Assembly: GCA_020137815.1 (NCBI GenBank)
Contig: CM035356.1
Span: 4,402,001-4,466,000 of the forward strand
Source: Hormiphora californensis
Lineage: Eukaryota > Animalia > Ctenophora
Direction of reading: 5' to 3'
Length of the DNA: 64,000 bases
This document shows positions 2,925 to 58,812 of this stretch, piece after piece. Numbering within the stretch: the first letter of the stretch is position 1; every line of letters starts with the position of its first letter. The notes under the pieces are model-generated. The model made no database searches. It was not told the origin of the DNA and saw only the letters and a list, made by a program, of their open reading frames with translations. The position numbers and the translations under genes are program-made.

Positions 2925-3119
2925 TTTCTAATAACTTAGAAAAGTGGTTTGAGCATCAAAAGATTCAAAACGGCTCAACTGTTTGGGTTGAAGTATTCAG
3001 AAACCAGTGGATATTGAATAATATAATAATGAATAAGAGGCAAAATTTTGGAAAATGATATCAAAATTGAAATAATGATATCAGAATTGAAATAATATTT
3101 CATATTGATAATTGATATA

Positions 3120-3291
3120 CAGTCAGACCCCGATTTACCGGGCCCCGATTTACCGGAACCCCGATTTACCGGGAGGATAAACTTCCCCCGGTATAGGAAA
3201 ATAACGGTATTTGACCCCGATATACCGGGCACCCCGATTTACCGGGCAAAACCCTTTCCCCCGAGCATCCCGGTAAATCGGGGTCCGACTG
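3120..3291. mobile_element. Tc1/mariner-type MITE (CAGTCGGACCCCGATTTA family)
   Basis: TIR CAGTCAGACCCCGATTTA...TAAATCGGGGTCCGACTG, TA on both sides, internal CCCCGATTTACCGG repeats. Relatives at 7430, 31188 and 45516. Confidence 0.9.
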
Positions 3292-3375
3292 TATCACTAT
3301 CAGTCACACAATTTGACAAAAATGAAACATCAACATCATGCATTTAATTCATTCATTTATCAACTAGTATAATAG

Positions 3376-5342
3376 TCACTCTACATTGTCAATACCACAC
3401 TCCCCACTGCTACAAGTATGGTGGCTAGCTTTCTTTAAGTGCTCCGCTCTCCCTCTCAACATCTCAACCTCACTCCGTACATTCTTCTGCGCATTTTCCT
3501 CGGCAAATTGTCGAAATTCTCGGGTCGCGAACACAAACTTCCTGTCCACAAACCGGGACATAATCTGAAAAAAAGAATGGTAAAAATTAAGCTAATAGCT
3601 ACTAGAGATCGGACTAAGCCTGTATGGTCGCGGCGCCAGACAGGGCTAGCAGTAATAATTACCGCGGCTCTGCGTTCACAGAACTCCAGCTCCGGAACAT
3701 GTTCATACTCCTTCCTTATCTTCCTGGCGTATAAAGTGTACTCGATGGGGTTAGCTCCCAGAATGGCAAGGTCAAAGTCCAGGAAATAATGGATGTCGCG
3801 GGCTCTACCACTGTCTGACTCATGTTCCTAGGGAGGAAGGAGGTTGTTCAGCTAAATTTACACTTCTCTGTTACAGCTACAATTACAGTAGTAACACAGA
3901 AGTAACACAGCAGTTTTAGTAAACCTAGACGAGGTAGGGGGAAGATATTGGACCGGACAGAGGATTAGCAAAACTAGACGAGGTAGGGGGAAGATATTGG
4001 ACCGGACAGAGGATTGGGGAATCCTGACGTCTGTGTGATGGTTTTAGATTGAAAGGGGGGGGGGCTCATCAATCTGCAGAAACGTCTGTGTGATGGTTTT
4101 AGATTGAAAGGGGGGGGGCTCATCAATCTGCAGAAACGTCTGTGTGATGGTTTTAGATTGAAAGGGGGGGGGGCTCATCAATCTGCAGAAACGTCTGTGT
4201 GATGGTTTTAGATTGAAAGGGGGGGGGCTCATCAATCTGCAGAAACGTCTGTGTGATGGTTTTAGATTGAAAGGGGGGGGGCTCATCAATCTGCAGAAAC
4301 GTCTGTGTGGTGGTTTTATTTTGGAGAGTGGTTCTATATCTGCCAACAAATCTCTAGTACCTCTGTGTGATGTCCAGTGCTAATCTCTAGTACCTCAGTG
4401 TGATGTCCAGTGCTAGTCGTTGTAATCATCTCAACCACATCCCTGATGAGATCGCTCTCCAGATTTAGGTCCTCAGCACACCTCTCAAACGCCTCCACAC
4501 TTTTCTCCTCATTGTCTGCTCGCTGCATGGTGGACACATGCAGTTATTAATTATTATTAATTATTAATTATTATAATGAATTTCCAACACCCCTTACTCA
4601 AAAATTCAAAAAACAATCAGTCATTGTTTGACAAGAGAGCCTCGTTCCTAGAAGGAATGATTCATAGAAGCCTAAGGAATGAGGTTCTTACCTTGGGATC
4701 ATACTCATAGTCATGGAAGAAAATGGAAAAGAGGACTGTTTTTGGAAAGGTGAGCTCCTGGACAAAGTGCTTGTGGTTCAGTATCATTTGGTATATGTGT
4801 TCTAGGTTGTGATACTTCCTGCAGGGATTTGTTATTGTTAGGGGGGTGGGGGTGGTTGGGGTTGTTGGGTTGGCGGGCTGGGGGGAGTGTGGGGGGGGGG
4901 GGCGGGGTGGTGGCGGGTATATGTGTTCTAGGTTGTGATACTTCCTGGGGGATTTGTTATTGTTTGTTAGGGGGGTGGAGGGGGGTTATTCAGGGGTTGA
5001 GGGAGGGTTCATGTTCTTCAGGGGGTGGGGGGGGGGCGATCGAGGCTCACGAAGTGAAAATAGGTTGCAATAGATCCAATTATGATACCTATGTGGTTGT
5101 GTGTATTGGGATATAATATCGTGGAACCATTCTCCAATCACCAACTTGTCGTCTGAGAAGGAACCTGCCAGGGTCTGCCACTCTGGAAACACAGTGATGT
5201 TATGTCGATGTTATATGCGATACTATTGTCATTGAGTAAAAAAGCACAAATTGAAAAACTGACCTATCCAAACCATTTCCTGTTTCATATCAATAAATCC
5301 CCGGTCCCTTTTGCTCCGTTTTTCACCCATCTGCTGGTCCAT
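3376..5342 (-). CDS. Predicted metal-dependent HD-superfamily phosphohydrolase (COG4339-like), 6 coding exons
   Basis: Phase-compatible GT-AG exons at about 5342-5264, 5183-5089, 4818-4692, 4522-4394, 3827-3663 and 3564-3376. Motifs PHRKYHNLEH, FFHDYEYDPKRADNEEKS and FLDLDLAILG...YARKIRKEY. Confidence 0.85.
4028..4312. repeat. About 54-bp minisatellite, about 5 copies, intronic
   Basis: Unit CTGTGTGATGGTTTTAGATTGAAAG(n)CTCATCAATCTGCAGAAACGT. Confidence 0.92.
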
Positions 5343-6064
5343 CTGGCAAAGATAAAATTTATAAAGGAGCACCTGAAAATATTTATGAAGGAGCAACGGA
5401 GTTGCAGAGTAAAAGCACACGCAACAGGAAGTGTGTGTGTGTGCGTGTTAAAGCAATGTACATTTTCTTCTATCTTGAGGCAGTTGGTGAAAATGGAAGT
5501 ACTTAAACCCAGTTGAACAAATCGGCCATCCGATTTCCAAGTGATAATTTCAAAAAAGGTCTGATTTTGTGGGAAATCGAGAATTGAATTAACACAATTT
5601 ACACACAAACACTTACACACAATGAAACACAAACAATGGCCATTGAAAGCAATTAACACTTTATACATTGATCGTGTCCAAGATTTGGCAGATACCAACT
5701 CAACAATTCTAACTCAACATAAAAATGGCCCACGTACGGCGTACAGTCTGTACAAAACCAGCTCTTCTCTAAATAGTAAACTGCAGTCTTCACAGACAAA
5801 CGACAAACACAGCATGAACTAAAGTTAGCTGAGAGGAATCATAAAACAATTCATACCGGATCCTTGTGGATCAGAGTTATGTCAGATCAACCCCACTAGC
5901 TATTACTATAATATGGTCCCTGTCAGGCCAATGTTCCATACTGTGAACCCTCTTGGTAGCTGTGTATCACTCGAATCGAGCTGTATAGTATACAGTGTAT
6001 ACTCACTCTCTCAGCCGTGCGAGATGTTACAGTCAGTGCCGGACAACTATATACTCACTCAATC

Positions 6065-13293
<7,229 letters not shown>

Positions 13294-13631
13294 GTTTTAA
13301 CTCTCCCCTTTTGGGTGGTTTAACTCTCCCCTGCCCGTGCTGCTATAATGTAAGATCTGGGATGCTCCCCTGCCCGTGCTGCTATAATGTAAGATTTGGG
13401 ATGGTTATAACAATTCAATCAACTACTATAACTCTCGACTGGTATTCTGCATGTACAAAGGGCTGGTGAGAGGTAACAGAAAGAATTCATACCAAGATAA
13501 AATATGAAACGTGATACAGGCAAGTAGAGGGGGATGCGAAATATATCCATGAGTACGTGGTACGACGTTTGGGATACATTTACGAAATCTGAAAACCTCA
13601 AACTACAGTCATGAAACGGAGTGAAAGAGAA

Positions 13632-13764
<133 letters not shown>

Positions 13765-14086
13765 TTCCTGCAGGTAGGTATAGAACAAACATCCTTGTTT
13801 TCTATCTTGAACCCTCCACATCCACAATGTGTATTACACATGCTGTATCCTAATAGAGTAGAAATGTGGAAATGGGGAGAACTTTCCATATCACAGCAAC
13901 CGCTATACCGGCGCCGTATCCCGGAAAAAAGGAAAGGCTCGGGATTTTTGGTGGTAAGAAGGGTCAGGTAGCAAAAAATGAAAAACACACACATAAACAG
14001 AATGGCCTCGCACCATTGCAAATTGTCCAGCAACTCGTTCAGTCTTTGTATCTCTCTTTCTCTCTCTCTCTCTCATAATTCCATCT

Positions 14087-14190
<104 letters not shown>

Positions 14191-14429
14191 CCTCACTTTC
14201 TCTCCTCTATAGAAGTCCAACTATGCACCTTACCAAGACCGGCTTGCTATGGTACTATTCGATGTCCAAGTATCTACTCTGGTCGGCCCCTCGTCCGTCA
14301 AAACTCAGATACTGTTCCGGAGAATCCTGAATGGGGTTGGTGAGTTAGGGATGAAGCACTATGTGGTATGTGGTCATGTCCGATTTTGAGTTAGGGGTGA
14401 AGGATACATCAATAATGGGGATTGGGGTT

Positions 14430-17062
14430 GTTGAGTTAGGGGTGGAGAATCCTGAATGGGGTTGTTGAGTTAGGGGTGGAGGAGACATCAAGAATGGGGT
14501 TGTTGAGTTAGGGGTGGAGGAGACATCAAGAATGGGGTTGTTGAGTTAGGGGTGGAGGAGACATCAAGAATGGGGTTGTTGAGTTAGGGGTGGAGGAGAC
14601 ATCAAGAATGGGGTTGTTGAGTTAGGGGTGGAGGAGACATCAAGAATGGGGTTGTTGAGTTAGGGGTGGAGGAGACATCAAGAATGGGGTTGTTGAGTTA
14701 GGGGTGGGGGAGACATCAAGAATGGGGTTGTTGAGTTAGGGGTGGAGGAGACATCAAGAATGGGGTTGTTGAGTTAGGGGTGGAGGAGACATCAAGAATG
14801 GGGTTGTTGAGTTAGGGGTGGTGGAGACATCAAGAATGGGGTTGTTGAGTTAGGGGTGAAGGAGACATCAAGAATGGGGTTGTTGAGTTAGGGGTGGAGG
14901 AGACATCAAGAATGGGGTTGTTGAGTTAGGGGTGGAGGAGACATCAAGAATGGGGTTGTTGAGTTAGGGGTGGAGGAGACATCAAGAATGGGGTTGTTGA
15001 GTTAGGGGTGGTGGAGACATCAAGAATTGGGTTGTTGAGTTAGGGGTGGAGGAGACATCAAGAATGGGGTTGTTGAGTTAGGGGTGGAGGAGACATCAAG
15101 AATGGGGTTGTTGAGTTAGGGGTGGTGGAGACATCAAGAATGGGGTTGTTGAGTTAGGGGTGGAGGAGACATCAAGAATGGGGTTGTTGAGTTAGGGGTG
15201 GAGGAGACATCAAGAATGGGGTTGTTGAGTTAGGGGTGGAGGAGACATCAAGAATGGGGTTGTTGAGTTAGGGGTGGAGGAGACATCAAGAATGGGGTTG
15301 TTGAGTTAGGGGTGGAGATATCAAGAACGGGGTTGTTGAGTTAGGGGTGGAGGAGACATCAAGAATGGGGTTGGTGAGTTAGGGGTGGAGGAGACATCAA
15401 GAATGGGGTTGTTGAGTTAGGGGTGGAGGAGACATCAAGAATGGGGTTGTTGAGTTAGGGGTGGAGATATCAAGAACGGGGTTGTTGAGTTAGGGGTGGA
15501 GGAGACATCAAGAATGGGGTTGTTGAGTTAGGGGTGGTGGAGACATCAAGAATGGGGTTGTTGAGTTAGGGCCCCCCTATAATAGGGGTGGAGGAGACAT
15601 TAAGAATGGGGTTGTTGAGTTAGGGGTGGAGGAGACATCAAGAATGGGGTTGTTGAGTTAGGGGTGGAGGAGACATCAAGAATGGGGTTGTTGAGTTAGG
15701 GGTGGAGGAGACATCAAGAATGGGGTTGTTGAGTTAGGGGTGGAGGAGACATCAAGAATGGGGTTGTTGAGTTAGGGGTGGAGATATCAAGAACGGGGTT
15801 GTTGAGTTAGGGGTGGAGATATCAAGAACGGGGTTGTTGAGTTAGGGGTGGAGATATCAAGAACGGGGTTGTTGAGTTAGGGGTGGAGATATCAAGAACG
15901 GGGTTGGTGAGTTAGGGGTGAAGGAGACATCAAGAATGGGGTTGTTGAGTTAGGGGTGAAGGAGACATCAAGAATGGGGTTGTTGAGTTAGGGGTGGAGG
16001 AGACATCAAGAATGGGGTTGTTGAGTTAGGGGTGGAGGAGACATCAAGAATGGGGTTGTTGAGTTAGGGGTGGAGGAGACATCAAGAATGGGGTTGTTGA
16101 GTTAGGGGTGGAGGAGACATCAAGAATGGGGTTGTTGAGTTAGGGGTGGAGGAGACATCAAGAATGGGGTTGTTGAGTTAGGGGTGAAGGAGACATCAAG
16201 AATGGGGTTGTTGAGTTAGGGGTGGAGATATCAAGAACGGGGTTGTTGAGTTAGGGGTGGAGGAGACATCAAGAATGGGGTTGTTGAGTTAGGGGTGGAG
16301 GAGACATCAAGAACGGGGTTGGTGAGTTAGGGGTGGAGGAGACATCAAGAATGGGGTTGTTGAGTTAGGGGTGAAGGAGACATCAAGAATGGGGTTGTTG
16401 AGTTAGGGGTGAAGGAGACATCAAGAATGGGGTTGTTGAGTTAGGGGTGAAGGAGACATCAAGAATGGGGTTGTTGAGTTAGGGGTGGAGGAGACATCAA
16501 GAATGGGGTTGTTGAGTTAGGGGTGAAGGAGACATCAAGAATGGGGTTGTTGAGTTAGGGGTGAAGGAGACATCAAGAATGGGGTTGTTGAGTTAGGGGT
16601 GGAGGAGACATCAAGAATGGGGTTGTTGAGTTAGGGGTGGAGGAGACATCAAGAATGGGGTTGTTGAGTTAGGGGTGGAGGAGACATCAAGAATGGGGTT
16701 GTTGAGTTAGGGGTGGAGGAGACATCAAGAATGGGGTTGTTGAGTTAGGGGTGGAGGAGACATCAAGAATGGGGTTGTTGAGTTAGGGGTGGAGGAGACA
16801 TCAAGAATGGGGTTGTTGAGTTAGGGGTGGAGGAGACATCAAGAATGGGGTTGTTGAGTTAGGGGTGGAGGAGACATCAAGAATGGGGTTGTTGAGTTAG
16901 GGGTGGTGGAGACATCAAGAATGGGGTTGTTGAGTTAGGGGTGGAGGAGACATCAAGAATGGGGTTGTTGAGTTAGGGGTGGAGGAGACATCAAGAATGG
17001 GGTTGTTGAGTTAGGGGTGAAGGAGACATCAAGAATGGGGTTGTTGAGTTAGGGGTGGAGGA
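14430..17062. repeat. 38-bp minisatellite array, about 69 copies
   Basis: Unit GAGTTAGGGGTGGAGGAGACATCAAGAATGGGGTTGTT, with 35-bp variants (GGAGATATCAAGAACGGGG). Confidence 0.97.
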
Positions 17063-17649
17063 AGAATTGGGGAATCATGGAGGTAGAAATATAGGTAAAA
17101 AACGAGCGCACGAGAAGGGGGGGGGGACAACTGAAAAATCCGACTTTATATCAAGTATGAAGAATAAAGAGGATAACAAGAAAAGTGAAGAGTGAAAAGT
17201 TATCTTTCTCCACTTTTCAATATTTTATCTCTGAGTTCAGGTGATGTTGTGTTGAATCAAAATTCCCACGATCTGAAAGTGTTACCTTCAGTACCATTGA
17301 AGATCTGCTTCAATGGTACTGATGCGGGTACTTGTACAATGTACACACAGTACACACAGCTAGTGTTCTGAGTGAGACTCCTTGTAGTATCTAGATACTG
17401 TTAGACTGTAGACTGTCGAAATATTTTGTTGTAGGTGGATATCGATACAGTAAATTGTTGTTGAGTAAGGGGGAACAAGTAAATTGTGTGTCTACTACAA
17501 AAAAAAACTTATCGACCTGTGCTTCTTGTATTTAATTGCTTTTCCTTTTCAGCAACTAGACACAACGCATGACACTGCAGCTCTATAGCTATACCCCCGC
17601 TATACCAATGGTGTATTGAGTATCTAACACCCCCCTGACTTCTAAATTA

Positions 17650-18015
17650 CTCCACATTCTCCGACTCTGTCTATAATTCCTCTCCTTCTTCACGCCTCGC
17701 CCTCTACTACAAATACGCATTCTGACTCAGTCTATAATTCCTCTCCTTTTTCACACCTAGCCCTCTACTACAAATACGCATTCTGACTCTGTCTATAATT
17801 CCTCTCTTTCTTCACACCTAGCCCTCTACTACAAATACGCATTCTGACTCTGTCTATAATTCCTCTCCTTCTTCACGCCTCGCCCTCTACTACAAATACG
17901 CATTCTGACTCTGTCTATAACTCCTCTACTTCTTCACGCCTCGCCCTGTACTACAAATACGAATTCTGACTCTGTCTATAATTCCTCTCCTTCTTCACGC
18001 CTCGCCCTCTACTAC
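17650..18015. repeat. About 61-bp minisatellite, about 6 copies
   Basis: Unit TTCTGACTCTGTCTATAATTCCTCTCCTTCTTCACGCCTCGCCCTCTACTACAAATACGCA. Confidence 0.92.
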
Positions 18016-20360
18016 ATGTGCAGCAGCTCTCCGCTGTACACTGTGTATTAGTCGTTAGTGAGGCCCCCGTTCTTCAAGAGTGGCTGCACACTCCGTTCTA
18101 GCCATGTCCCTTGTATAATGTGTGTCATTATATATGCACCATGTCGTACTTGTTAGATTGGCCCGTCTGAACGCTGTCCCGGTCTTGCAATGTGTAGGAG
18201 AGTTCTCAAATGTTCAAATTAATATCTCAGGATGTACATTTATTCCTGTTTTTGTATATAGCTCTCTCCCAGCTCTCTCCCAGCTTTAAGTGGTTCGTTT
18301 TATACACTATAAGTTGTTCGGCTCCACAAATGCAGACAAACCTCACTCTCGCACATATCATGCTAATACAGCAGGTCTATGAGTTTGAATTGCAGCTCTC
18401 TTTGCCACTCATGATTTGCAGTCCTCCATGATTTGCATATCATTCTCTTGTGCAGTCTACCTCTCTCTCCTTCTCCCCAGTATAGTAGCTTTCTCTCCCT
18501 AGTTGATATATTCCCCAAATGGAGACAACTGCAGCACAATGAAAGGGTGTTTCCATTCCTCATGTACCTATAGGTCCTAGAGTCTATAGACTCTAGGTCC
18601 TAAAGCACACATGTATAATTCTAGCACATGTGTTGTAGTACTCCCTGTTCTGAACTACCGCTGAGATGCAATGTTCATTCAACATGCTCTCTTTTTCTCG
18701 CTTAGTATGCTGAGTCGGTGCATTGCTGACGTTGTTTTCTCTTTTCTCTTTGTCAACCCATAACCACGAATTAGTATGGTTCATTATACAGTAATTATAC
18801 CCGCTCTATGCAATTGTGGCATGTGCATTACTACTTTCGTATCCGGTTATATCGATCTGTCTCACTAACTGCACTAAGATGTCAGATACCCGACATAGTA
18901 CGACATAATCGACATACTAATTAGTAATTAGTATAGCGTGGTTACTCGACAGCTCATACATTATGCCTTTATGTAGCTTCATGGATAAGGCATAACCAAT
19001 ATTCTTTGAATCTTGAATCTATAAATTGACAATTCTTAGGGCACCATGATGACGGTTAAAATTCAGTCATTATAAGTTGAATGTTGAACACGAGTATTAT
19101 ACGAGTCAGACCAATGCTTTGACAGCGGTTTATGTGCATCACGCGTCTTTCATTCGAGAACATTTCAAATTGTTAGGGAAATAGCGAAAGTTGGAGAGAA
19201 ACATATTATCTAGTTAAAGGAAATACAGTTCCTTGAATTGTTAATTATTTTCTCATATTCACATAATATGTGTGTTTGAAAATAATTCGCTGTATTGTTC
19301 TCATGTGTCCCCACAGTCCACACGGATAATTTCAACTGGTGTCTGACACGAAGCTAGCATCGCATTTATCTCACTTCTGTCTTCTAGAAGTTTAGATCTA
19401 TGTCTTTGCGGTTTACATGCCAACATGTTGTCATTTTGAAAATATCACGTTTCTTACCGTGTCTTCGCTGTTATGTTCCTCCGCGTCCACTATTGCTGTT
19501 GTATCTTCTTCCCCTGAAAGAAGGAGGATATAGATGGAGGGGAGAAAGAGGGAGGGGAATCGAGGAGAGCGAGAGGGAGGGGAATCGAGGAGAGCGAGAG
19601 GGAGGGGTGGAGGAGAGAAAGAGGGAGGTGGATGGAGGAGAGAAAGAGGGAGGATATAGAGGAGAGAGATGGAGGGGATGGAGGGGAGAAAGAGAGGGGG
19701 AGAGAAAGATGGAGGGGATGGAGGGGAGAAAGAGGGAGGGGAATCGAGGAGAGCGAGATGCGAATATGAAATAAAAGAAAGACATTATAGAGATAAAGAG
19801 GAGGAAAGGGAACTATATCGAGATAGATGGAGTACAAGAGGGAAAGATCAGAGACATGGTAATATTATGGTGAGCTGATAATAGAGCGGTGGAAGCCATG
19901 GTTCTAAGAAATGAAAAGGAGCCAGCCTTTAACCCTTTGAGGGCGATAGAGCATAGTCCTCACAGATTAGCGTGCAGTGTGAGCCACACAAGGGGATCTA
20001 TAGACCTGTAATTAGGGGCATCTCTCTAGCTATGTAATTAGGAGCACCTCTCTATGTAACATATGTTTGATGAGGTCCTTTTTGAATTTATGTAGCAGAT
20101 CTTCAAACCTGCTAGCACGCTTCTCTTTCATCCTGCACAGACTCTATATTTGCCTTGCTCGACCCTTTGTCACCCTCTCTCAGTTGGAGGTCAGCAAATA
20201 AAAAGCTTCTAGTTCTCAATTATGCAGGGTGCAGAGAGAGAGAGGGAGTCGAGAGGGAGTTGAGGGGGGGGTCGAGGGATAGCTATAACGGATACCTGCC
20301 ACATATTGCATTATTGCTATTTCACACGTGTTGCTATACTCCACATGTTACTATTATAAT

Positions 20361-46215
<25,855 letters not shown>

Positions 46216-47317
46216 TCGGACATGCGGGATGCTAGTTGAGAGGGGGGAGTTATTGGGGCTATATTTACCCGTGTTTTAAAGATTCCTATCTATATATGAG
46301 GCATAAACTCTGGCCACTGGCGCGTTATTTCAGATAACTTTCTCCCAGCGCGCCGCTGGGAGAAGTTAGCGGATAAACTGGTTTAAATCACGACGACGAT
46401 CCTGAGGCGTAGCCGAGGGAGAGGCGGAGGGGTTTAAACCAATAACGTGCCATTGGTCAGAGTTTATGGGTTATATACCCTGCTTTAGTTGTTTGTTTCA
46501 AGTATTACACACTAACAAGAGAGAGAACGCTAATCAAAACACACAAAGAGAACTGAGAAACAGTCAAAAACATCTCTCAATTGAGTGTATATTGTTTGGT
46601 AACAGTTACTAAGGAGAGAGAGAAAGAAATAACAAGATATGGGGCATGCCAGACATAACACAGAGGAATTGAGATAGTGAAACAAAAGGGGAGATAAAGA
46701 GAGAGAAATTGACGGAATGTGTTGTTTCTTTCTCTCCAATGCAGTGTGTAACTCTTGCAAACAGTGTTCCCTCTGTATTTCAGTAAGAACTGATCATTTA
46801 CACACACTTTGAATGTAACATAGGAGTTAATAATAAACAGCCAGCCAGTGGGAAATAATCTGCCGCTGGACTGGCTGTATATTGAGAGCGCGCCAGTGGG
46901 ACTTCTCGCCGCTGGCGGGTTATTTAAGTTAGCAGGGTATATAAATATTTAGATTTGCATTATAGTATGTTTTCAAACCGGGCAGTGGGTGTTCCCCTCT
47001 CCACCTCTAAATCTATTGGGGAAACCGTACGTCATAATTTTATTGTTTTTGTGATGATTTAGTGACCAGTGGCATAGTGGGAAATAAGAGTGCTGGAAGA
47101 AATGGAAGAATATTGAACAAGATAGAGAGAGAAATAAAGGGAGATATTAAAGCAAAATGGGGTGTAAAATGTGAGTACCCAGTATGATAATGCAGGAGAC
47201 TTAAACTTAGTCTGGCACCATGTGGTCAACGTGAGAAAGAGAGAAAGATAGAGAGAAAGATAGAGAGAGGGAGAGAGATAGAGAGATAGAGAGAAAGAGA
47301 AAGAGAGGGGATGGCAC

Positions 47318-47345
47318 TATAAGTACCGCCTGTTTTGCTCACTTT
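47318..47345 (+). promoter_or_regulatory. Candidate TATA box plus Inr of the small secreted-peptide gene
   Basis: TATAAG at 47318, TCACTT at about 47339, ATG in CAAC-ATG context at 47391. Confidence 0.45.
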
Positions 47346-47390
47346 TTCAAACCATCAATAGTATTCCACCAACTTTGTACCTCTCCCAAC

Positions 47391-47588
47391 ATGTTCAAGT
47401 TTTTTGTGCTATTCCTTGTTGCCGGACTTGTAGCCGCTGCCCCCATTGAAGAGGAGAAGGTGGCTGCTGAGGGACTGTCCCTGAGCGCCCTAACTGCGGA
47501 GCTAGGATCTGGATCTGAGGCTGCTCCTGCCGTTCTGGAGGAGGGAGCTGGAGAGGCAGAGTTTGGATTCAAAGACATCAAAGGATAA
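47391..47588 (+). CDS. 65-aa secreted prepropeptide, candidate amidated neuropeptide or defence-peptide precursor
   Basis: Signal peptide MFKFFVLFLVAGLVAA, acidic Ala/Glu/Gly-rich pro-region, C-terminal EAE-FGFKDIK-G-stop. A GC-richer coding-like island in an AT/GA-rich background. Confidence 0.75.
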   Translation: MFKFFVLFLVAGLVAAAPIEEEKVAAEGLSLSALTAELGSGSEAAPAVLEEGAGEAEFGFKDIKG

Positions 47589-47875
47589 ATAATGGAATTA
47601 TGTTTTAACATGTTTTCTGCATAACTTAAAAAGAGTGCTTTGTATTTCTTGTTAAAAAAGAGCCACCCTCCATGTTTGTAACCCCCGCTCTTTAGCAGGC
47701 GATATATCCTATCACTCCCTCCACTGTAAGAAGTGTCAGCCTTCAGACAACTTCCCCTCTCGAGAGAGGGATAATGTTGTCGTATATGTCGCAGGATTCT
47801 CCCAAATGTAGTTTACCAATACTAGCAAAACTGGGGCGATCGTACCGATCGCTAATCGAGGAATCTGTTTCCATA

Positions 47876-47960
<85 letters not shown>

Positions 47961-47965
47961 CTCTC

Positions 47966-48074
<109 letters not shown>

Positions 48075-48719
48075 TCTGTCTATCTCACTGTCTATCTCAC
48101 TGATTGTCTCTCCCTCTCTCTCTCTGTCGTTCTGCAGTCTGTTTCACTGTCTCTCCTTCACTCTCTTTCGCTTATGATATATGCTATGTGATGTGATCCC
48201 TCTCTTTTTCCTCTCTCTCTTTCTCTCCCTTTTATGTATGTGAAGTGACCCCTTTAGTTCGCAAGCAGTTCTCTAGCACTTGTGATACGTGATACCTACG
48301 AATCACGTCGTCACACTGACGGATCACGTCGTCACATTGACGGATCACGTCGTCACAGTGACGTATCACGTCGTCACACTGACGATAGGGTGTCACATTT
48401 CCACCCAAATTTGCATTAGATATAGTTAGATGTTGCAGTTGACCACACTGTTTGATCCATCAGGCCTCAGGATAGCGGCTACGGGACATATCCATTATTC
48501 TTAAGCCTTTCCCCAGAGATACCTCCCTCCCCGGATCCTTCCTGTGAAGGACCTGCAGCACCCTCCTCCCTGAGATTAGGCCCTAGGCTGCCACAGGGAG
48601 TCACAAATCTTGACACCTGACCTCCCCCCCCCTGCTAAAACAAAGGCGTGAGAGCCAAGTTTTATATGGCTGAGCTACTTGACTTTATGGCGACCGGAGA
48701 GGACGAGTAGTAATGGACG

Positions 48720-50350
48720 ATTTCCAGTTATCCCGGTTGCACATAAGTTCAAGCATTTCGTTACTATTATCACACACATCGTCCAGGTCTTGTAATAGGA
48801 CATCTGGGAATGTTAGTAACGGGCAGCTGGCCATGAGCTGGTTTCCACATTTAGTAGTTCATGTCCCACTAGGTCATCGTGTCTAGCAAGGTGCCCTGCC
48901 ATTCTCAGTCTCTGGCTTCTTATCTTCTCAGTTACACGAGGGATATCTTGGAAAACCACGGCATTTGACACTCTGTCCGTACACCTGATGTTCAGGGCAG
49001 GTGAGTAGAACTTCGCTCCTAATAAAAGGCTGCAATAAAAGGCTGCAATAAAAGGCTGCATTAAAAGGCTGCAATAAAAGGCTGCAATAAAAGACTGCAT
49101 TAAAAGGCTGCAATAAAAGGCTGCAATGGATCACGTATCCAACTGGAATAAAGCAGGAGAGACCGAATCAGGAAATAGACCGAATCGTCCTCGCCTAACA
49201 GTGTTTCGTTTCACGTATCGGCCTCTACCATAAGCGGTAGTGAGACCGAATCACCCGCCCCTAATTATAGCGATTCGTGCCATGTATCCAACTAAACCAT
49301 AGACGGAGATAGACGGAGATAGAGAGTTAGAGAGGTGAGAGTGAGAGATCCGAATCATGGACGACTAATCAAGTATTGTATCACGTTTCATGATATCCTC
49401 TAATTAATTAAATGAAAGACGGTTACCTATAATTTGACTTAATCGGTGCCAATACGTGATTACTGATTTTCTGCCGTTATTCGCCAATGTACACAATTCA
49501 GTAGAGCGGAATCACACATAGTACTATGATAGGTGAACCATTGGTGACATGGGTGGTTCACCTGTCATCGTGCTACACGCGCAATCAATAGATCTACCCT
49601 ACCTCATTAGACCAACACTCTCAGTAGTTACTGACTACCTCTACTGAATCGTGGATCTATACGGAAAGACTAATGGAGAATACATAGCGGTAGAGAATCA
49701 CGTATCGGGACCGATGAGGTCTCATTGTCAATTGGTAACCGCTTTTCATTAGAGGATACCATGGTACGTGATACCATACCATGATTCTGATTTTTCACTC
49801 TCTCAGTTCTCACTCGTACTCGCTCTCTATCTCGGTCTCTCTATCTCGGTCGATCTCTATCGCCTATGGTCTAGTTGGATACGTGACACGAGTCACTATA
49901 ATTAGGGGAAGGTGATTCGGTCTCTCTACAGCCGATACGTGATACGAAACACTATTAGGGGAGGACGATTCGGTCTATCTCTCGCTTTAGTCTGGTTAGA
50001 TACGTGATCCCTTGCAGCCTTATATTGCAGCCTTTTATTGCAGCCTTTTATTGCAGCCTTTTATTGCAGCCTTTTTCTGCAGCCTTTTATTGCAGCCTTT
50101 TATTAGGAGCGAAGTTCTACTCACCTGCCCTCAACATCCTCGAGTAATACCCATCAATCTTCTTGCCTAGGCTCTTGGTTATTGTCCACGTTTCAGATCC
50201 GTAGACCGTAGAGAAAGATGTAAGATGGTCTCAACAGTGGATCTGAACAACCTCACTTTCATCTTTCTAGACATCTTAGATTTCCAGACTCTGTTCATAT
50301 TATTTAGGGCACCCCAAGCCTTGGCCTTCCTAACTTCGAAATACATTTAT
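48720..50350 (-). pseudogene. Degraded RTE-clade LINE RT C-terminal fragment, split by a MITE
   Basis: KAWGALNNMNRVWKS...VRLFRSTVETIL...YGSETWTITK...YSRML / NIRCTDRVSN...QRLRMAGHLARH, with frameshifts. Confidence 0.8.
48995..50130. mobile_element. PIF/Harbinger-like MITE
   Basis: TCA|GGGCAGGTGAGTAGAACTTCGCTCCTAATAAAAGG...CCTGCCC|TCA with 13-bp subterminal repeats AATAAAAGGCTGC. Removing it restores the RTE frame RMLNI. Confidence 0.85.
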
Positions 50351-51122
50351 CGTAAACTCGATCGAGGATGTACTAGGAGGGCACCTCCGGGGCATTGATC
50401 ACCAGCCAACAAGTGTTGCTCTCAGTAGACTGAGTCTTCTCACGGATGGAGGATGGTTTCGGCGTAACTTTCCTTGCCCCCCCCCCCCCGTTTTCGCAAA
50501 GTTTGTTTCTGCGATATCTCTGGTTCCTGATAAAAAACTTCATTCCGGGTACATTGGAACGATGAATTTAAGACCTTTCCAATGCACTCGGGATGAAGTC
50601 GCTATCTCATCAGGTAGAAAACCGGAGTTAGAAACGTAAAAAATGTTAAAAAATTTAGAAAGCTAAGAAAAACGGAATAAATAAATTAATTCATGGTCTT
50701 GATAATTCTTCTTATCCTCTTCTTATTCACTTCACCGTTCACGTAACTAGCTCAGTACAGGCTAGGTTGGCGATGGCGATCTTCCTCCGATTTCCTCTTG
50801 CCACCACTGTCTCTTCAGTCCTTGTCACGCCCATGCTTCACCCTCCTCTCCCAGCACCTCCCCCACTACCCGTACATTCAGGTTCCCACATCTGGCATCC
50901 CTACCACCCACATCACAGTCACTGTTCCCTCTACCCTCCATCTCTCCCTACCTCCCAGTACTATCCATCGCATTCTACGTCCCATGTATTCTTTATCCTC
51001 TACCCTACCTCCTTACCCTCCCTCCCCTAACCTCGCCACTGTTGTTCGTTCCCTCCTCCCCTCCACCATCTTAATCTATTTATTGTTACTTGGTTTATGA
51101 GTGTGTTTTTCATATATATCAT

Positions 51123-51511
51123 AGTGAACCATAATAAAGTTCAAGAGCCTCCAAGAGCGCCAAAGAGTGCACCCCATCGAAGAGAGACCACACCTGAGAG
51201 CGCACCACACCCAAAAGAGATCACATCCAAGAGCGCACCACCTCCAGAAGACACCACTCCAAGAGCGCACCACATCCAAGAGAGCTCCCCATCCAGAAGA
51301 TACCACATAACACGCAGGGGACACCACACGCAGAAGAGACCAGCACAGCGTTGTACTTGCGTGTGTGATCTCTTCTGCGTGTGGTGTCCCCTGCGCCTGG
51401 TATCTTCTGGATGGGGAGCTCTCTTTGATGTGGTGCGCTCTTAGAGTGGTGTCTTCTGGAGGTGGTGCGCTCTTGGATGGGGTGCACTCTTGAACTTTAT
51501 TATGGTTCACT
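51123..51511. repeat. Palindromic element with internal about 33-bp repeats (MITE-like)
   Basis: AGTGAACCATAATAAAGTTCAAGAG...CTCTTGAACTTTATTATGGTTCACT; no clear TSD. Confidence 0.7.
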
Positions 51512-52304
51512 TCGGGGATGGGTGACCCAAATACAAATACAATTATAATTTATATCCCGCTTTTGGGCCTATGCATTGTTAGTGCTAGGAGGACGCCGCT
51601 TCAATCAGTCGATTGAAGCAACGCACCCACCACTAACAAGCCTTCTAAAGCGGCTGAAGCCCTGATTTATTTTAAAACTTGTCAAAACTTGTCATTGGCA
51701 AACGCTGCTGGCCCCCTTGGCAAACGTAGCTGGCCCCCGATAGCAGGGATAAGCAGCACTTTTCAACTGGCCCCGCAGCGCGGGATAAGGCAGTGCTTTT
51801 CAAAACTTGTCAAAACTCGACTTTAAAAGTTTGATTTTTGTTTTCAAATATTTTAAGTGAATGCGCGGCGTCGTTATGCAGCGTGGAATAGCCAATTTTG
51901 GCGTGTAACGTTTAAAAACCCGTTTGCAGACATCGCGAAGTTAACGCGCGCGCGATAAGTAACTTTAAAATTCCCAAAAAGCTTTCTTCGAAATTTTAAA
52001 GTCGGATTTTTTGACACCCCGGTGTCGGATTGCTGTTTCCATAAGAAGATTTTTTGAAGTTGAACAAGAATTTTGTCGACAGAACAACCTTTAATTCAAT
52101 CCCCTCATCTCGTGCGTCGTCAATTCTCCTCAACCCCAACCATCATGCTAGTGCTTACTGCTTGACCACCGACCGGGGGGAGGCGACCGAGAGTAACATC
52201 CGTGTTCCAGCCGACCAGGAGAGAAGCCCCTGCATCCCCTCCATTCTTTAATTCCTTTTTAATGCAATTTCTCTACTACTAGCAATGTAAGATACAGATT
52301 TGAA

Positions 52305-55300
52305 ATGGGGGACCAGGAGCTAAGTCAGCTCCTGAATATGGGCTTCGGGTACGAGGAAAGTACAGCTGCTCTGGAATCCTTGTAAAAACAATGTCGCTGA
52401 AGCAGTGGCTTATTTGACGGAGAAGGCTGTTGCTGTTGTGCCCTATGGTCCAGATAATAAGAAAGAAACTGCCATGGAGATTGAAACCTTCGATGAAACT
52501 GAGGAATTTCCCAAACAAGGTACTGCACCTGAGAGTTGTCTGTCTCCAGATACATATTTACTCAACTTAATGAACTTTTGATCTTGATTTATATTTCAGT
52601 CTAGTTTTGACAAAATCAATTTATATTTCAGTTTTGATGAATATAAAAGGTCGGATTTACAGTGAGAATTGGTCGATGACCTACGTAGAGGGTGATGGTA
52701 TTCTAAAATGTATTAAATCTGCGATAAAACTAGCTGAGAACGACTCCATCCAATCTAATGAAGATTGCAAAAAGTTTGTTTTTGAGGTAAACCTAGCGTG
52801 ACTTTGTTTAATTCCAACATGATAATATTGGATGCTAACACTAGGTTAACTTTCAGGTGTTACCCGTGGCCCTTAACAAACTCCTAACAAACACTACAGT
52901 ACACGACAGCGAGCTACAAGATGCTATACTGAATATAACTACCACTTATCTTACACTTGCTGTTACCCAACTTAGACATAGGTCAGTAAGACATTTTAAT
53001 ATCGCTTAGTTTGAGTCGCTTTGACATCGTATGAACAATTCAACGCTTAGTCTGTTGTGGGGGAGGGGGTTGAATTATTTGTAAGTGTAGAGACTTTGAA
53101 ATTGTATAAACCAATTAATATTATTTTAACTTGTAGGTTAGAAGTTAGCACACTGAAACTGTTATCTACCATTATGGATCCAAGATGCGAGTTCAACTTT
53201 AGAAACAGATCGAAACGAACCAAACATAATTCTAGCCAGGTAACTGCCACACAATTCGAATCATTCGCCATTCTACTGTATCTTCAACAGTTTTAGTTTC
53301 ATCAGTTACATCAAAATAATACGTTTTAAATTACCATATATATTCCAGGGAGTGCTATACGGTCAGTGTCCGTCTCGAACCACGTTCAGAGACCCGTACG
53401 GCTGGCTGGTGACTCTAATTAACGCTTTTGGAGCTGCTGGGGGATTCCAGGCCATACTCTCTCATGTGGTGGACCCACCTCCCAGTCCGTTCCTTCTGGC
53501 TCATATTCTAGCACCGTGGGGGAAATGTATAGAGTATGTGATACCAGATACAATAGCACCCATACTGAAACAACTCATGAAGGTATTGAGGGGGGCATTA
53601 GCTTGTTGCTAACTGTTTTACCCACTGAGACTTACCTTGGGTAATATCCCCCCTTCTTCTATCCTCCTGTGTTGTCTCTCTCATGTTATTGCGCGCGCTA
53701 CGTTTAGTTATGGAGAGGGGACACTGTACCCACTGAGACTTACCTTAGCTCGGTGTATTTTCTGTTTTCTGATACCACTAAAACGATCGTATATTTTCGA
53801 CACCATTATTACCCCCAAACATCCTCTCATTATATAATCGCTTTTTCCTAACCCCCTTTACTATAGCTACACCATTATAATTCCACCCTCCCCCACTCCT
53901 CCCTCCCCCACTCCTCTATCAAACTCCCAATTGCCTCTGTTAGAACATAATAAACTCCCAGCTCGTCTCCCCCCGTTAGACCGCTGAGAGAGCTACTAAG
54001 AGAGGCTCTCTCTCCCATGACTAACCTCTGAGAGAGCTACTAAGATCAAGAGAGGCTCTCATCCCCTGATTAATCCCCAATCCCCCGTTAGACCTCTCCC
54101 CCCTGATTAATCCCCAAATCCCCCGTTACACCTCTGAGAGATCAAGAGAGGCTATCTCCCCTGACTAATCCCCCAATCCCCCCGTTAGACCACTCTCCCC
54201 TGACTAATCCCCCAATCCCCCCGTTAGACCACTCTCCCCTGACTAATCCCCCAATCCCCCCCGTTAGAGGTTCTCTCCCCTGACTAATCCCCACATCCCC
54301 CCCCCCCCCCCCCCCGTTAGAGGTTCTCTCCCCTGACTAATCCCCCCAATCCCCCCGTTAGACCACTCTCCCCTGATTAATCCCCCAATCCCCCCGTTAG
54401 ACCACTCTCCCCTAATTAACCCCCCGATCCCCCCCCCCCCCCGTTAGACCTCTGATTAATCCCCCAATCCCCCCCGTTAGACCACTCTCCCCTGATTAAT
54501 CCCCCAATCCCCCCGTTAGACCACTCTCCCCTGATTAACCCCCCGATCCCCCCCCCCCCCCGTTAGACCTCTGATTAATCCCCCAATCCCCCCGTTAGAC
54601 CACTCTCCCCTGATTAATCCCCCAATCCCCCCGTTAGACCACTCTCCCCTGACTAATCCCCCAATCCCCCCGTTAGACCACTCTCCCCTGACTAATCCCC
54701 CAATCCCCCCGTTAGACCACTCTCCCCTGACTAATCCCCCAATCCCCCCCCGTTAGAGGTTCTCTCCCCTGACTAATCCCCCAATCCCCCCCCCCCCCCC
54801 CGTTAGAGGTTCTCTCCCCTGACTAATCCCCCCAATCCCCCCGTTAGACCACTCTCCCCTGATTAATCCCCCAATCCCCCCGTTAGACCACTCTCCCCTG
54901 ATTAACCCCCCGATCCCCCCCCCCCCCCCGTTAGACCTCTGATTAATCCCCCAATCCCCCCCGTTAGACCACTCTCCCCTGACTAATCCCCCCCCAATCC
55001 CCCCGTTAGACCACTCTCCCCTGACTAATCCCCCAATCCCCCTCGTTAGACCACTCTCCCCTGACTAATCCCCCAAACCCCCCCCCCCCCCGTTAGACCT
55101 CTCTCCCCTGACTAATCCCCCAAACCCCCCGTTAGACCACTCTCCCCTGACTACTAGAGGCTCTCTCCCCCCTGACTAATCCCCCTCCCGTTAGACCTCC
55201 ATCGAAGTGATCCGAGATATGGGATGTGAGGACTATAAAAGCAAAGAGATTGGGCTGGTTTGCGATCTGATATTATCCATGAAATACATATGTACAGGAT

Positions 55301-56057
55301 GCGGTCAGCAATTTAATATGAGTGTAAGTTAAATACACGTTACTACTACACGTGACACTACACGTGTCATGTCATTTCCACTTCCTACCTGTCAACTAGA
55401 TATTACATACATGATATACATGTCAGTACGCCCCAACTAAATCTAACATCACATATAATGTTACCCTTCCCAACACCACTAATACCTGATGTTACAGTTT
55501 ACACTAATTAATCCCAATTACTACAGTTTACACTAATTAATCCCAACTACTACAGGACGCTAATTAATCCCAATTACTACAGGACGCTAATTAATCCCAA
55601 TTACACTACAGGACGCTAATTAATCACAATTACTACAGGACGCTAATTAATACCAATTACTACAGGACGCTAATTAATCCCAATTACTACAGGACGCTAA
55701 TTAATCCCAATTACTACAGGACGCTAATTAATCCCAATTACACTACAGAACGCTAATTAATCCCAATTACTACAGGACGCTAATTAATCACAATTACTAC
55801 AGGACGCTAATTAATCCCAATTACTACAGGACACTAATTAATCCCAATTACTACAGGACGCTAATTAATCCCAATTACTACAGGACGCTAATTAATCCCA
55901 ATTACTACAGGACGCTAATTAATCCCAATTACTACAGGACACTAATTAATCCCAATTACTACAGGACGCCCAGGGAATGGATGTAATGAGGCTGGAACAA
56001 ATTCAAAAGATGCTCAAGACATCCCATTTTAATGCGAGGATGAACGCCCTCAATGAG
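52305..56057 (+). CDS. USP24: Ubiquitin carboxyl-terminal hydrolase 24-like, N-terminal 7 exons (UBA plus helical region); +1 frameshift in exon 1
   Basis: Exons 52305-52519, 52632-52786, 52857-52981, 53137-53239, 53348-53582, 55195-55323 and 55965-56057. They encode LSQLLNMGF...KNNVAEAVAYLT (UBA), RIYSENWSM, DPYGWLVTLINAFGAAGGF and MRLEQIQKMLKTSHFNARMNALNE, collinear with USP24 as recalled. The exon 8 start (TLRIVEET) is present only as a tandem array. Confidence 0.82.
53970..55194 (+). repeat. About 39-bp minisatellite equal to branch point plus acceptor plus exon start of USP24 exon 6
   Basis: Unit ACCACTCTCCCCTGACTAATCCCCCAATCCCCCCGTTAG, about 30 variable copies; the last reads CCGTTAG|ACCTCCATCGAA. 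Confidence 0.92.
55495..55964 (+). repeat. 27-bp minisatellite equal to acceptor plus first 5 nt of USP24 exon 7
   Basis: Unit TAATTAATCCCAATTACTACAG|GACGC, about 17 copies; the last continues GACGCCCAGGGAATG. Confidence 0.94.
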
Positions 56058-56689
56058 GTACTTGCCTAGTATATATATAGCTAGACTGTGTAAAGGAGGG
56101 TTAGAACAATGAGGTACAGCCATTATACAATTGGATTATTTAATAATTTTGCGGGATTGTTCGTGATGGGGTGGCACTGCCACCGTGGCAGGGCATGTAG
56201 ATTGTTCGGCTGTCCCTCCCAATCTTTCCCACACCCAATTAGTTGAAGTGTTAATTAGATAGAGTTTACAGGATAGAGTTTCAACTAATGACAGGTGTTA
56301 GCTTGTTGCTTGATAGTATCAAGGTGATGTTATATCCCTCTCTCATGTTTCCTGTAACTCAATATTTTACCCCCTTTCTAACTCCTGGCACCTCCCCTCT
56401 CTTATAACACCCCTAACACCCCCTTTAAAACACTCGATCCTGGCACCTCCCCTCTCTTATAACACCCCTAACACCCCCTCTCTAACACCCCTAACACCCC
56501 CTTTCAAACACCCCTAACACCCCCTCTCTTATAACACCCCTAACACCCCCGTTCAAACACCCCTAACACCCCCTTTAAAACACCCCTAACACCCCCTCTC
56601 TTATAACACCCCTAACACCCCCGTTCAAACACCCCTAACACCCCCTCTCATACACCCCTAACACCCCCGTTCAAACACCCCCGTTCAAA

Positions 56690-58812
56690 CACCCCCTTTC
56701 AAACTCCCTCAGACACTGCGAATAGTGGAGGAGACAAGAGACATGAACATGAAACACCCCCTTCTAACACCCTCTCCCTCAGACACTGCGAATAGTGGAG
56801 GAGACAAGAGACATGAACATGAAACACCCCCTTCTAACACCCTCTCTCTCAGACACTGCGAATAGTGGAGGAGACGAGAGACATGAACATGAAACACCCC
56901 CTTCTAACACCCTCTCCCTCAGACACTGCGAATAGTGGAGGAGACAAGAGACATGAACATGAAACACCCCCTTCTAACACCCTCTCCCTCAGACACTGCG
57001 AATAGTGGAGGAGACGAGAGACATGAACATGAAACACCCCCTTCTAACACCCTCTCCCTCAGACACTGCGAATAGTGGAGGAGACAAGAGACATGAACAT
57101 GAAACACCCCCTTCTAACACCCTCTCCCTCAGACACTGCGAATAGTGGAGGAGACAAGAGACATGAACATGAAACACCCCCTTCTAACACCCTCTCCCTC
57201 AGACACTGCGAATAGTGGAGGAGACAAGAGACATGAACATGAAACACCCCCTTCTAACACCCTCTCCCTCAGACACTGCGAATAGTGGAGGAGACAAGAG
57301 ACATGAACATGAAACACCTCCTTCTAACACCCTCTCCCTCAGACACTGCGAATAGTGGAGGAGACAAGAGACATGAACATGAAACACCCCCTTCTAACAC
57401 CCTCTCCCTCAGACACTGCGAATAGTGGAGGAGACAAGAGACATGAACATGAAACACCCCCTTCTAACACCCTCTCCCTCAGACACTGCGAATAGTGGAG
57501 GAGACAAGAGACATGAACATGAAACACCCCCTTCTAACACCCTCTCCCTCAGACACTGCGAATAGTGGAGGAGACACGTGACATGAACATGAAACACCCC
57601 CTTCTAACACCCTCTCCCTCAGACACTGCGAATAGTGGAGGAGACAAGAGACATGAACATGAAACACCCCCTTCTAACACCCTCTCCCTCAGACACTGCG
57701 AATAGTGGAGGAGACAAGAGACATGAACATGAAACACCCCCTTCTAACACCCTCTCCCTCAGACACTGCGAATAGTGGAGGAGACGAGAGACATGAACAT
57801 GAAACACCCCCTTCTAACACCCTCTCTCTCAGACACTGCGAATAGTGGAGGAGACGAGAGACATGAACATGAAACACCCCCTTCTAACACCCTCTCCCTC
57901 AGACACTGCGAATAGTGGAGGAGACAAGAGACATGAACATGAAACACCCCCTTCTAACACCCTCTCCCTCAGACACTGCGAATAGTGGAGGAGACAAGAG
58001 ACATGAACATGAAACACCCCCTTCTAACACCCTCTCCCTCAGACACTGCGAATAGTGGAGGAGACAAGAGACATGAACATGAAACACCCCCTTCTAACAC
58101 CCTCTCCCTCAGACACTGCGAATAGTGGAGGAGACAAGAGACATGAACATGAAACACCCCCTTCTAACACCCTCTCTCTCAGACACTGCGAATAGTGGAG
58201 GAGACAAGAGACATGAACATGAAACACTCCCTTCTAACACCCTCTCCCTCAGACACTGCGAATAGTGGAGGAGACAAGAGACATGAACATGAAACACCCC
58301 CTTCTAACACCCTCTCCCTCAGACACTGCGAATAGTGGAGGAGACGAGAGACATGAACATGAAACACCCCCTTCTAACACCCTCTCTCTCAGACACTGCG
58401 AATAGTGGAGGAGACAAGAGACATGAACATGAAACACCTCCTTCTAACACCCTCTCTCTCAGACACTGCGAATAGTGGAGGAGACGAGAGACATGAACAT
58501 GAAACACCCCCTTCTAACACCCTCTCCCTCAGACACTGCGAATAGTGGAGGAGACGAGAGATATGAACATGAAACACCCCCTTCTAACACCCTCTCCCTC
58601 AGACACTGCGAATAGTGGAGGAGACGAGAGACATGAACATGAAACACCCCCTTCTAACACCCTCTCCCTCAGACACTGCGAATAGTGGAGGAGACGAGAG
58701 ACATGAACATGAAACACCCCCTTCTAACACCCTCTCCCTCAGACACTGCGAATAGTGGAGGAGACGAGAGACATGAACATGAAACACCCCCTTCTAACAC
58801 CCTCTCCCTCAG
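56690..58812 (+). repeat. 70-bp minisatellite, 30 copies, equal to acceptor plus start of USP24 exon 8
   Basis: Unit CCCCTTCTAACACCCTCTCCCTCAG|ACACTGCGAATAGTGGAGGAGACAAGAGACATGAACATGAAACA, preceded by degenerate AACACCCCT repeats at 56385-56700. Confidence 0.96.

Follow-up and report, generated by a model that had tools for sequence, protein, structure and literature searches.

Mirage-type repeats at predicted splice junctions in a 64-kb stretch of the genome of the ctenophore Hormiphora californensis

The DNA analysed here (the window) comprises 64,000 nucleotides (nt) from the ctenophore Hormiphora californensis (assembly GCA_020137815.1, contig CM035356.1, positions 4,402,001 to 4,466,000). 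It is eukaryotic sequence with a GC content of 32-50 % per 2-kb bin, and five spliced genes could be rebuilt in it, with 40 closed introns and 80 exon-intron junctions. At some of these junctions the adjacent intron holds further copies of the splice site together with the edge of the exon, and the origin of these copies is the subject of this study. The gene models were built from Pfam matches, tblastn of relatives and splice signals, and the junctions were predicted from homology and reading frame, without RNA. The five genes are as follows:

HD-domain gene, minus strand: 6 exons, 261 amino acids (aa), open frame
Mucolipin (MCOLN) gene, minus strand: 15 exons, 605 aa, open frame; the Bolinopsis relative has 599 aa
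35792-37674, plus strand: GPCR gene, 5 exons, 399 aa, open frame
46215 to 20360, minus strand: CD36 gene, 12 exons, one frameshift in exon 4
USP24 gene, plus strand: 7 exons, one frameshift in exon 1, 3' end open

The mucolipin exon finds its best named relative in the mucolipin-3-like protein of Bolinopsis microptera (82 % identity), and for CD36 a Mnemiopsis leidyi protein is the only named full-length relative. The USP24 gene was identified by a Pfam match to ARM_UBP24_USP9X-Y, together with weak UBA and USP9X matches; when its relatives were sought from the exon at 53349-53585, none of the 72 candidates was confirmed. The two frameshifts, at about 42280 in CD36 and about 52380 in USP24, each involve a single base and are either consensus errors or broken alleles.

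Repeats were detected with Tandem Repeats Finder, an unbiased local-repeat scan and a self-comparison of the window. A copy in the adjacent intron was found for 11 of the 80 junctions (about one in seven), six of them donors and five acceptors:

4349-4415, minus strand: HD-domain gene, donor duplication, 33 nt x2 (real GT 4393, decoy 4360; 22 nt of exon and 12 nt of intron shared)
4790-4857, minus strand: HD-domain gene, acceptor with a copy at 4916-4987 (real AG 4820, decoy 4946)
10083-10103, minus strand: mucolipin gene, donor repeat with 12-nt spacing (GT 10097 and 10085)
12680-12801, minus strand: mucolipin gene, donor duplication, 60 nt x2 (real GT 12773, decoy 12713)
35873-36073, plus strand: GPCR gene, donor duplication, 105 nt x1.9 (real GT 35931, decoy 36036; 58 nt of exon)
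37069-37131, plus strand: GPCR gene, acceptor duplication, 31 nt x2 (real AG 37116, decoy 37085)
39747-39823, minus strand: CD36 gene, donor duplication, 37 nt x2 (real GT 39813, decoy 39776)
40818-42181, minus strand: CD36 gene, donor minisatellite, 31 nt x44 (unit of 10 nt exon and 21 nt intron; real GT 42171)
52587-52632, plus strand: USP24 gene, acceptor copy, a 14-nt match 32 nt upstream (real AG 52630, decoy 52598)
53970-55197, plus strand: USP24 gene, acceptor array with a unit of about 39 nt (real AG 55193)
55493-55969, plus strand: USP24 gene, acceptor array, 27 nt x17 (real AG 55963)

A preliminary description of the window had already listed junction copies in all five genes, and ten of these were confirmed at supported junctions, as was its highest copy number, 44, which belongs to the CD36 minisatellite. 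The mucolipin repeat at 10083-10103 was absent from that description; it shares only 9 nt and may be due to chance. The copy of the HD acceptor includes 29 nt of the exon start and lies 126 nt upstream, behind a spacer that is G-rich on the plus strand, and the exon behind the real acceptor matches HD relatives. Counting as intact those sites which keep the dinucleotide and have at most two flank mismatches, the CD36 minisatellite contains 44 intact GT (the real site and 43 decoys), and the two USP24 arrays contain 23 intact AG (the real site and 22 decoys) and 16 (the real site and 15 decoys). The unit of the array at 53970-55197 consists of a branch-point-like motif, a C-rich tract, the AG and 3 nt of exon.

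Every unit is a contiguous piece of exon and intron, arranged as in genomic DNA, and is specific to its locus; no unit common to different loci was found in the self-comparison of the window. Contrary to what had been proposed, the boundary does not mark the centre of the units: their exon share ranges from 1 to 58 nt and the breakpoints are not pinned to the splice site. Copies lie 12-126 nt apart, and in the six two-copy pairs that were measured (one of them a non-junction pair) the overlap at the joint was 0-3 nt. No exon-exon joint or lariat-type joint was found in the units. One cause put forward in the preliminary description was cDNA- or lariat-templated repair, by which junction sequence would be returned to the gene. 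Donors and acceptors are indeed both copied, in five transcribed-looking genes, but this origin fits poorly with genomic-type units that have neither such joints nor a breakpoint fixed at the splice site, and we regard it as very improbable. Unspliced pre-mRNA would be the only possible template, and the position of the copies would therefore be left unexplained. An origin of the units from introners or transposons was considered and rejected; the units copy the local exon and intron, and a dispersed piece occurs only at 56050-56117.

The preliminary description raised these copies to a window-wide rule, which does not hold. Copies are absent from 69 of the 80 junctions, and of the 29 duplications counted within the 40 closed introns, 18 hold no junction and 11 do. 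The 29 events were curated by hand from the Tandem Repeats Finder output and the local-repeat scan. Repeats in transposon-like elements, microsatellites and a 13-nt array upstream of the GPCR start were left out before counting, as were five features outside closed introns (13326, 14423, 56050, 56383 and 56704). With a cut at 25 nt, which was chosen after looking at the data, 10 of the 14 units of at least 25 nt hold a junction, compared with 1 of the 15 shorter units, for which 1.1 were expected and no excess is seen.

The excess among the long units was assessed by placing units at random among tolerated positions. With the copies alone collapsed, 1.8 of the 14 would be expected to hold a junction. 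The expectation depends strongly on intron length: when all introns were set to 100, 130, 160 or 200 nt, it became 9.0, 7.7, 6.6 or 5.6 of 14 (P 0.37, 0.14, 0.047 and 0.012, respectively), and the median intron length with copies and inserts removed is 161 nt. In such a placement test, suggested earlier and here run within the window, the excess is present at present-day intron lengths and gone if the introns measured 100-130 nt at the time of the duplications. The curated enrichment was 2-5-fold. In an uncurated, automated word test 9 of the 80 junctions had an intron-side copy (2.1-fold, P 0.029), with rates of 11 % at junctions, 5.4 % at intron-interior positions and 3.6 % at intergenic positions. 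This test is conservative because the interior includes the intronic halves of the junction units, and the P values are inflated because the window had been flagged for this very pattern. Related loci that might give the ancestral intron length were sought in two metagenome scans, in which none of 18 and none of 593 pattern matches, respectively, was confirmed. A junction excess is likely, though modest in size, and geometry can explain much or all of it. The claim of a junction-associated process is thus borne out as far as the excess goes, about 2-fold in the automated and 2-5-fold in the curated count. No junction-associated mechanism is required for it, because short introns and the removal of fully exonic duplications can yield most of the excess.

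The explanation that we favour, and to which we give somewhat better than an even chance, is that these are mirage-type repeats which stem from ordinary local duplication and survive at junctions since the exon-proximal site stays usable. As the units show, local and contiguous exon and intron DNA is duplicated. Such duplications would arise anywhere, through the filling-in of staggered breaks or through slippage. Those lying wholly within coding exons would be purged, while those crossing a junction would spare the exon-proximal site and the protein. In introns of about 100-170 nt, many of the tolerated duplications of 25-100 nt would have to cross a junction, and the conserved original may keep the pair recognisable for longer. 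A few pairs would then expand to minisatellites of 17-70 copies by unequal exchange or slippage. The decoys would mostly be ignored, as the frames found here and the data on F7 and amphioxus suggest, and recursive use would be unnecessary. An unbiased origin is supported by the 18 intronic duplications without a junction and by the occurrence of similar repeats in intergenic DNA. On this view the repeats follow no general rule and do no harm, and they are likely a side effect of the small duplications that commonly arise in short introns.

Several results weigh against an origin so neutral. With transposons, microsatellites and nested genes removed, 3.6 of the 14 long units were expected at junctions against the 10 observed (P 0.0003), and 5.0 when the two gene-hosting CD36 introns were also dropped (P 0.0045). 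Giving junction pairs double detectability raised these expectations to 5.6 (P 0.013) and 7.1 (P 0.086), and both this 2-fold weight and an ancestral intron length of 100-130 nt are assumptions, not measurements. The automated test gave a 1.8-2.2-fold excess at four word sizes (P 0.028-0.11). In addition, the four largest long-unit intronic arrays, like the array at 14.4-17 kb, either derive from a junction or resemble one, a pattern not obviously expected under random placement. Finally, the nearest decoy would give an in-frame, stop-free insertion (11, 42 and 35 aa) in 3 of the 11 cases.

Part of this evidence would be accommodated if the origin itself were biased, the DNA at exon edges being broken, nicked or stalled more often and then passing through the same filter and amplification. 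Nucleosomes are positioned on exons, and the linker DNA beside them, R-loops or a G-rich template opposite the C-rich acceptor tracts are candidate causes. A 2-3-fold excess remains under present-day intron lengths, a target-site-like repeat falls on a donor at 56050-56117, cytosine is frequent in the acceptor tracts (264 C and 284 T in 800 nt), and 4 of the 10 arrays scanned contain G-quadruplex motifs, in three cases on the template strand beside acceptors. However, the comparison rests on a single window flagged for the pattern and on a post hoc cut at 25 nt, the shorter units show no excess, there is no fixed breakpoint offset, and no G-quadruplex motif was found in the 44-copy CD36 array or in the 27-nt and 70-nt USP24 arrays. 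We consider a biased origin possible, and have clearly less confidence in it than in its opposite. It is less likely than not that a 2-3-fold duplication bias at exon edges, linked to chromatin or transcription, is common from comb jellies to chordates; in that case this compact genome, with its arrays of 15-43 intact decoy sites, would offer a natural genome-wide test of the bias and also of how an exon-proximal acceptor is selected when identical ones lie upstream.

The exon-proximal sites give continuous frames in the HD-domain, mucolipin and GPCR genes, and in CD36 and USP24 the frames are each interrupted by one unrelated frameshift. This agrees with the earlier statement that the exon-proximal copy gives the right frame. 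Use of the nearest decoy would lead to a frameshift or a stop in 8 of the 11 cases (the mucolipin decoy donor 12713, for example, runs into a stop), and the argument is decisive only for these, because the three other decoys (4360, 4946 and 36036) would insert in-frame residues, among them the 11 aa that would be added at the HD decoy donor 4360; frames alone do not reveal there which site is used. These three cases could also suggest that the copies are kept for a function, as alternative sites, in recursive splicing or in the tuning of splicing rate, and in the available part of PMC1557585 the nearest pseudo-sites are described as used in human 6-16 and CBS. The unit or spacing is divisible by three in 7 of the 11 junction cases, but so are 10 of the 18 non-junction units, and the idea of a specific multiple-of-three bias was dropped. 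Most of the nearest decoys would shift the frame or run into a stop, and the array at 14.4-17 kb has lost the AG in 66 copies. Moreover, each of the three large verified arrays carries one kind of site, unlike ratchet arrays with an AG followed by a donor, and a unit would hold such a pair only where the exon happens to start with GT. A function of the copies is thus improbable.

Errors of assembly were considered as a further explanation of the repeats. The two single-base frameshifts suggest consensus errors, the 70-nt array in USP24 stops abruptly without an exon, and the comparison with read-derived contigs, made with four runs on 35360-39300, covers the two GPCR repeats alone. Within this region a contig of run X5 (2019, study P2; record 14, 36786-37194) spans the GPCR acceptor pair with 0 differences, and record 3 of run X1, which may be the source of the assembly, bridges it as well. 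The pair is no assembly artefact, because a contig from the 2019 sample bridges it without difference. Contigs of X1 and X5 stop at 35902 and restart at 35989, which fits the presence of the 105-nt donor repeat, and copies differ by substitutions at many loci. We therefore hold an artefact to be most unlikely, although the copy numbers given for the long arrays are those of the assembly and may not be exact. The proposal to confirm the arrays in reads was in this way followed for the GPCR repeats, with the acceptor pair bridged and the donor repeat breaking as predicted.

The contigs also revealed a divergent second form of the GPCR gene (35360-37600), which differs by several percent in the exons and whose depth ratios differ strongly among X1, X5 and X6. 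Judged by its joints, three GPCR introns are shorter in this form and the second donor copy would be passed over; it leaves intron 1 at 35945 and rejoins at 36193, and it has no 13-nt array at 35680-35755. It may represent an allele, a paralog or pooled individuals. A search of sequencing runs with 35760-39250 named no RNA run with this sequence, and a possible RNA run, X8, gave 0 contigs on 35360-39300; neither result says anything about expression.

Junction repeats of this kind have been seen elsewhere. Canestro et al. (2002), whom we know through citing papers, reportedly described the mirages of amphioxus, and Rogers, Zhuo, Gao and Lynch are said to have treated intron gain by tandem duplication. 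In the available parts of PMC3087553 and PMC3902484, amphioxus mirages are listed for Adh3, the globins BflGb6 and BflGb9, troponin C and PGBD5 (the last two added by PMC3902484), with length polymorphism and normal splicing. Like these, the repeats found here are minisatellite-like copies of 5' and 3' intron boundaries in several unrelated genes, with units of 10-160 nt of which many, but not all, keep the AG or GT (here 43, 22 and 15 intact decoys in three arrays). The unit spans the authentic boundary, as it does at 11 predicted junctions in the window, where units are 12-126 nt and locus-specific. They differ in phylum, in copy number (up to 44 or 70 compared with the 2-7 given there for globin and PGBD5) and in that splicing at the exon-proximal site is here deduced from frames and homology. 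The statement in the preliminary description that no such mechanism was described holds in that the origin of mirages is called unclear in PMC3087553; the structure itself, however, has been named, as mirages and as F7-type variable number of tandem repeats (VNTRs).

Human minisatellites that span a junction have been described, in the part of PMC1557585 available, in F7 IVS7 (37 nt, 5-9 copies), 6-16, CBS IVS13, lamin B2 and PDGF intron 4. In F7 the most upstream donor is chosen without competition, and in the human VNTRs as a group the upstream-most donor is used, sometimes with the next two. The CD36 minisatellite shares their layout, in which the first unit spans the boundary and the donor is reiterated. 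The human examples listed there are donor-only single loci in long introns, whereas here acceptor arrays are equally common and copies occur at 11 of 80 junctions. For human duplicated genes, PMC2812944 (in the part available) treats internal tandem repeats at exon-intron boundaries. They too are local duplications, about 30 nt long and sited at boundaries of the gene structure, but these create or alter introns, while here existing introns are lengthened and no new intron is evident. For the ctenophore Hormiphora, PMC8527503 gives a tandem-repeat content of 13 %, a high heterozygosity for intronic indels and numerous nested genes, a description which the window fits; the portions available do not mention junction repeats. 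The available part of PMC10078293 holds nothing that bears on mirage origin. In the literature searched we found no ctenophore case of junction repeats and no genome-wide test of mirage enrichment over chance.

The window is a dense example of a known but little-studied repeat class in a new phylum. Mirage-type repeats thus reach Ctenophora, among the earliest-branching animals, which suggests a general trait of compact invertebrate genes and not an amphioxus oddity, and a genome in which they are so dense makes a test of mirages against chance easy. More can be learned from the acceptor arrays than from the donor arrays: if the first branch point simply set the start of scanning, an upstream copy would be used, and choice of the last copy would point to exon-side definition even in an animal with short introns. 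Junction copies also mislead gene predictors into calling false mini-exons.

The earlier claim that the process drives intron growth does not hold, as of the 34,370 intronic nt only 4,174 belong to local repeat copies of any kind and 13,750 to transposon-like and microsatellite sequence; nested genes take up 2,775. Only three introns, namely CD36 intron 4 and USP24 introns 5 and 6, consist largely (about 70-75 %) of junction arrays.

Further repeats lack an intact junction or a secure one:

3916-4015, minus strand: HD-domain gene, purely intronic duplication, 49 nt x2, a counter-example to the proposed rule
4027-4318, minus strand: HD-domain gene, intronic array, 54 nt x5.4, no intact junction, counted as non-junction
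13326-13403, minus strand: mucolipin gene, acceptor duplication at the first coding exon, 39 nt x2 (AG 13341, copy 13380)
14423-17062, minus strand: array of 38 nt x70, resembling branch point, tract and start of a putative 5' UTR (untranslated region) exon with AG 14328
56050-56117, plus strand: USP24 donor GT 56058 and its 11-nt copy (56107-56117), flanking a dispersed piece of about 45 nt
56383-56708, plus strand: C-rich array with a 23/72-nt unit, continued by the 70-nt array and lacking an AG junction
56704-58813, plus strand: array of 70 nt x30 with an acceptor-like AG and an exon-like start

The array at 4027-4318 has 11 nt in common with the HD decoy donor copy and is possibly a decayed derivative of it. 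Three of these features had been presented as junction copies. The mucolipin acceptor 13341 is predicted from signals only and is not fixed by homology. The repeat at 56050-56117 looks like a target-site duplication and not a tandem donor copy, because the 11-nt direct repeat flanks a piece found elsewhere in the window, in the self-comparison inverted at 40384-40414. Behind the array at 56704-58813 no recognisable USP24 exon lies in the window, so the exon-proximal copy cannot be named; a continuing exon was sought after 58813 in 10 plus-strand frames without a Pfam match, and one frame, also compared with solved structures, gave none. Given the frameshift and the exon not found there, this USP24 copy may be truncated. 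The array at 14423-17062, which the preliminary description had included conditionally in its copy numbers, resembles an acceptor and exon start, but 66 of its copies have another sequence in place of the AG and a single copy, at 14453, keeps it, and the exon is putative.

A 20-nt direct repeat in USP24 intron 5 (53619-53638 and 53727-53746) resembles a strong donor on the opposite strand; it is possible that it represents an antisense exon end with its own copy, and it was counted as non-junction. Two pyrimidine-rich arrays, 17663-18016 (61 nt x5.8) and 44432-44471 (13 nt x3), end a few bases before a plus-strand AG and are near-junction repeats without the dinucleotide. The CD36 introns host two antisense genes on the plus strand, the GPCR gene and an ORF (open reading frame)-bearing gene at about 44472-45110, which resemble the nested genes reported for Hormiphora. 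The 15.6-kb CD36 intron also contains an element of about 9.6 kb (22966-32569) whose terminal inverted repeats are nested; within it lie an 890-nt palindrome (24186-25078) and a satellite of 5 kb based on a 10-nt palindromic word. Short inverted-repeat elements with shared termini occur at 3116-3293, 7426-7608, 31185-32041 and 45514-45606, one within a mucolipin intron and one starting just inside a CD36 intron. On the plus strand at 47391-47588, a 65-aa ORF begins much like a signal peptide, continues with an acidic spacer and closes with a short peptide whose last residue before the stop is Gly; it is a candidate amidated-peptide precursor, with only a weak Pfam match (E 0.064). A LINE (long interspersed nuclear element) at 59055-62261 on the plus strand has a complete, uninterrupted ORF of 1068 aa with endonuclease and reverse-transcriptase domains, and a second LINE-like fragment, judged by eye, lies at 1-2400 on the minus strand.

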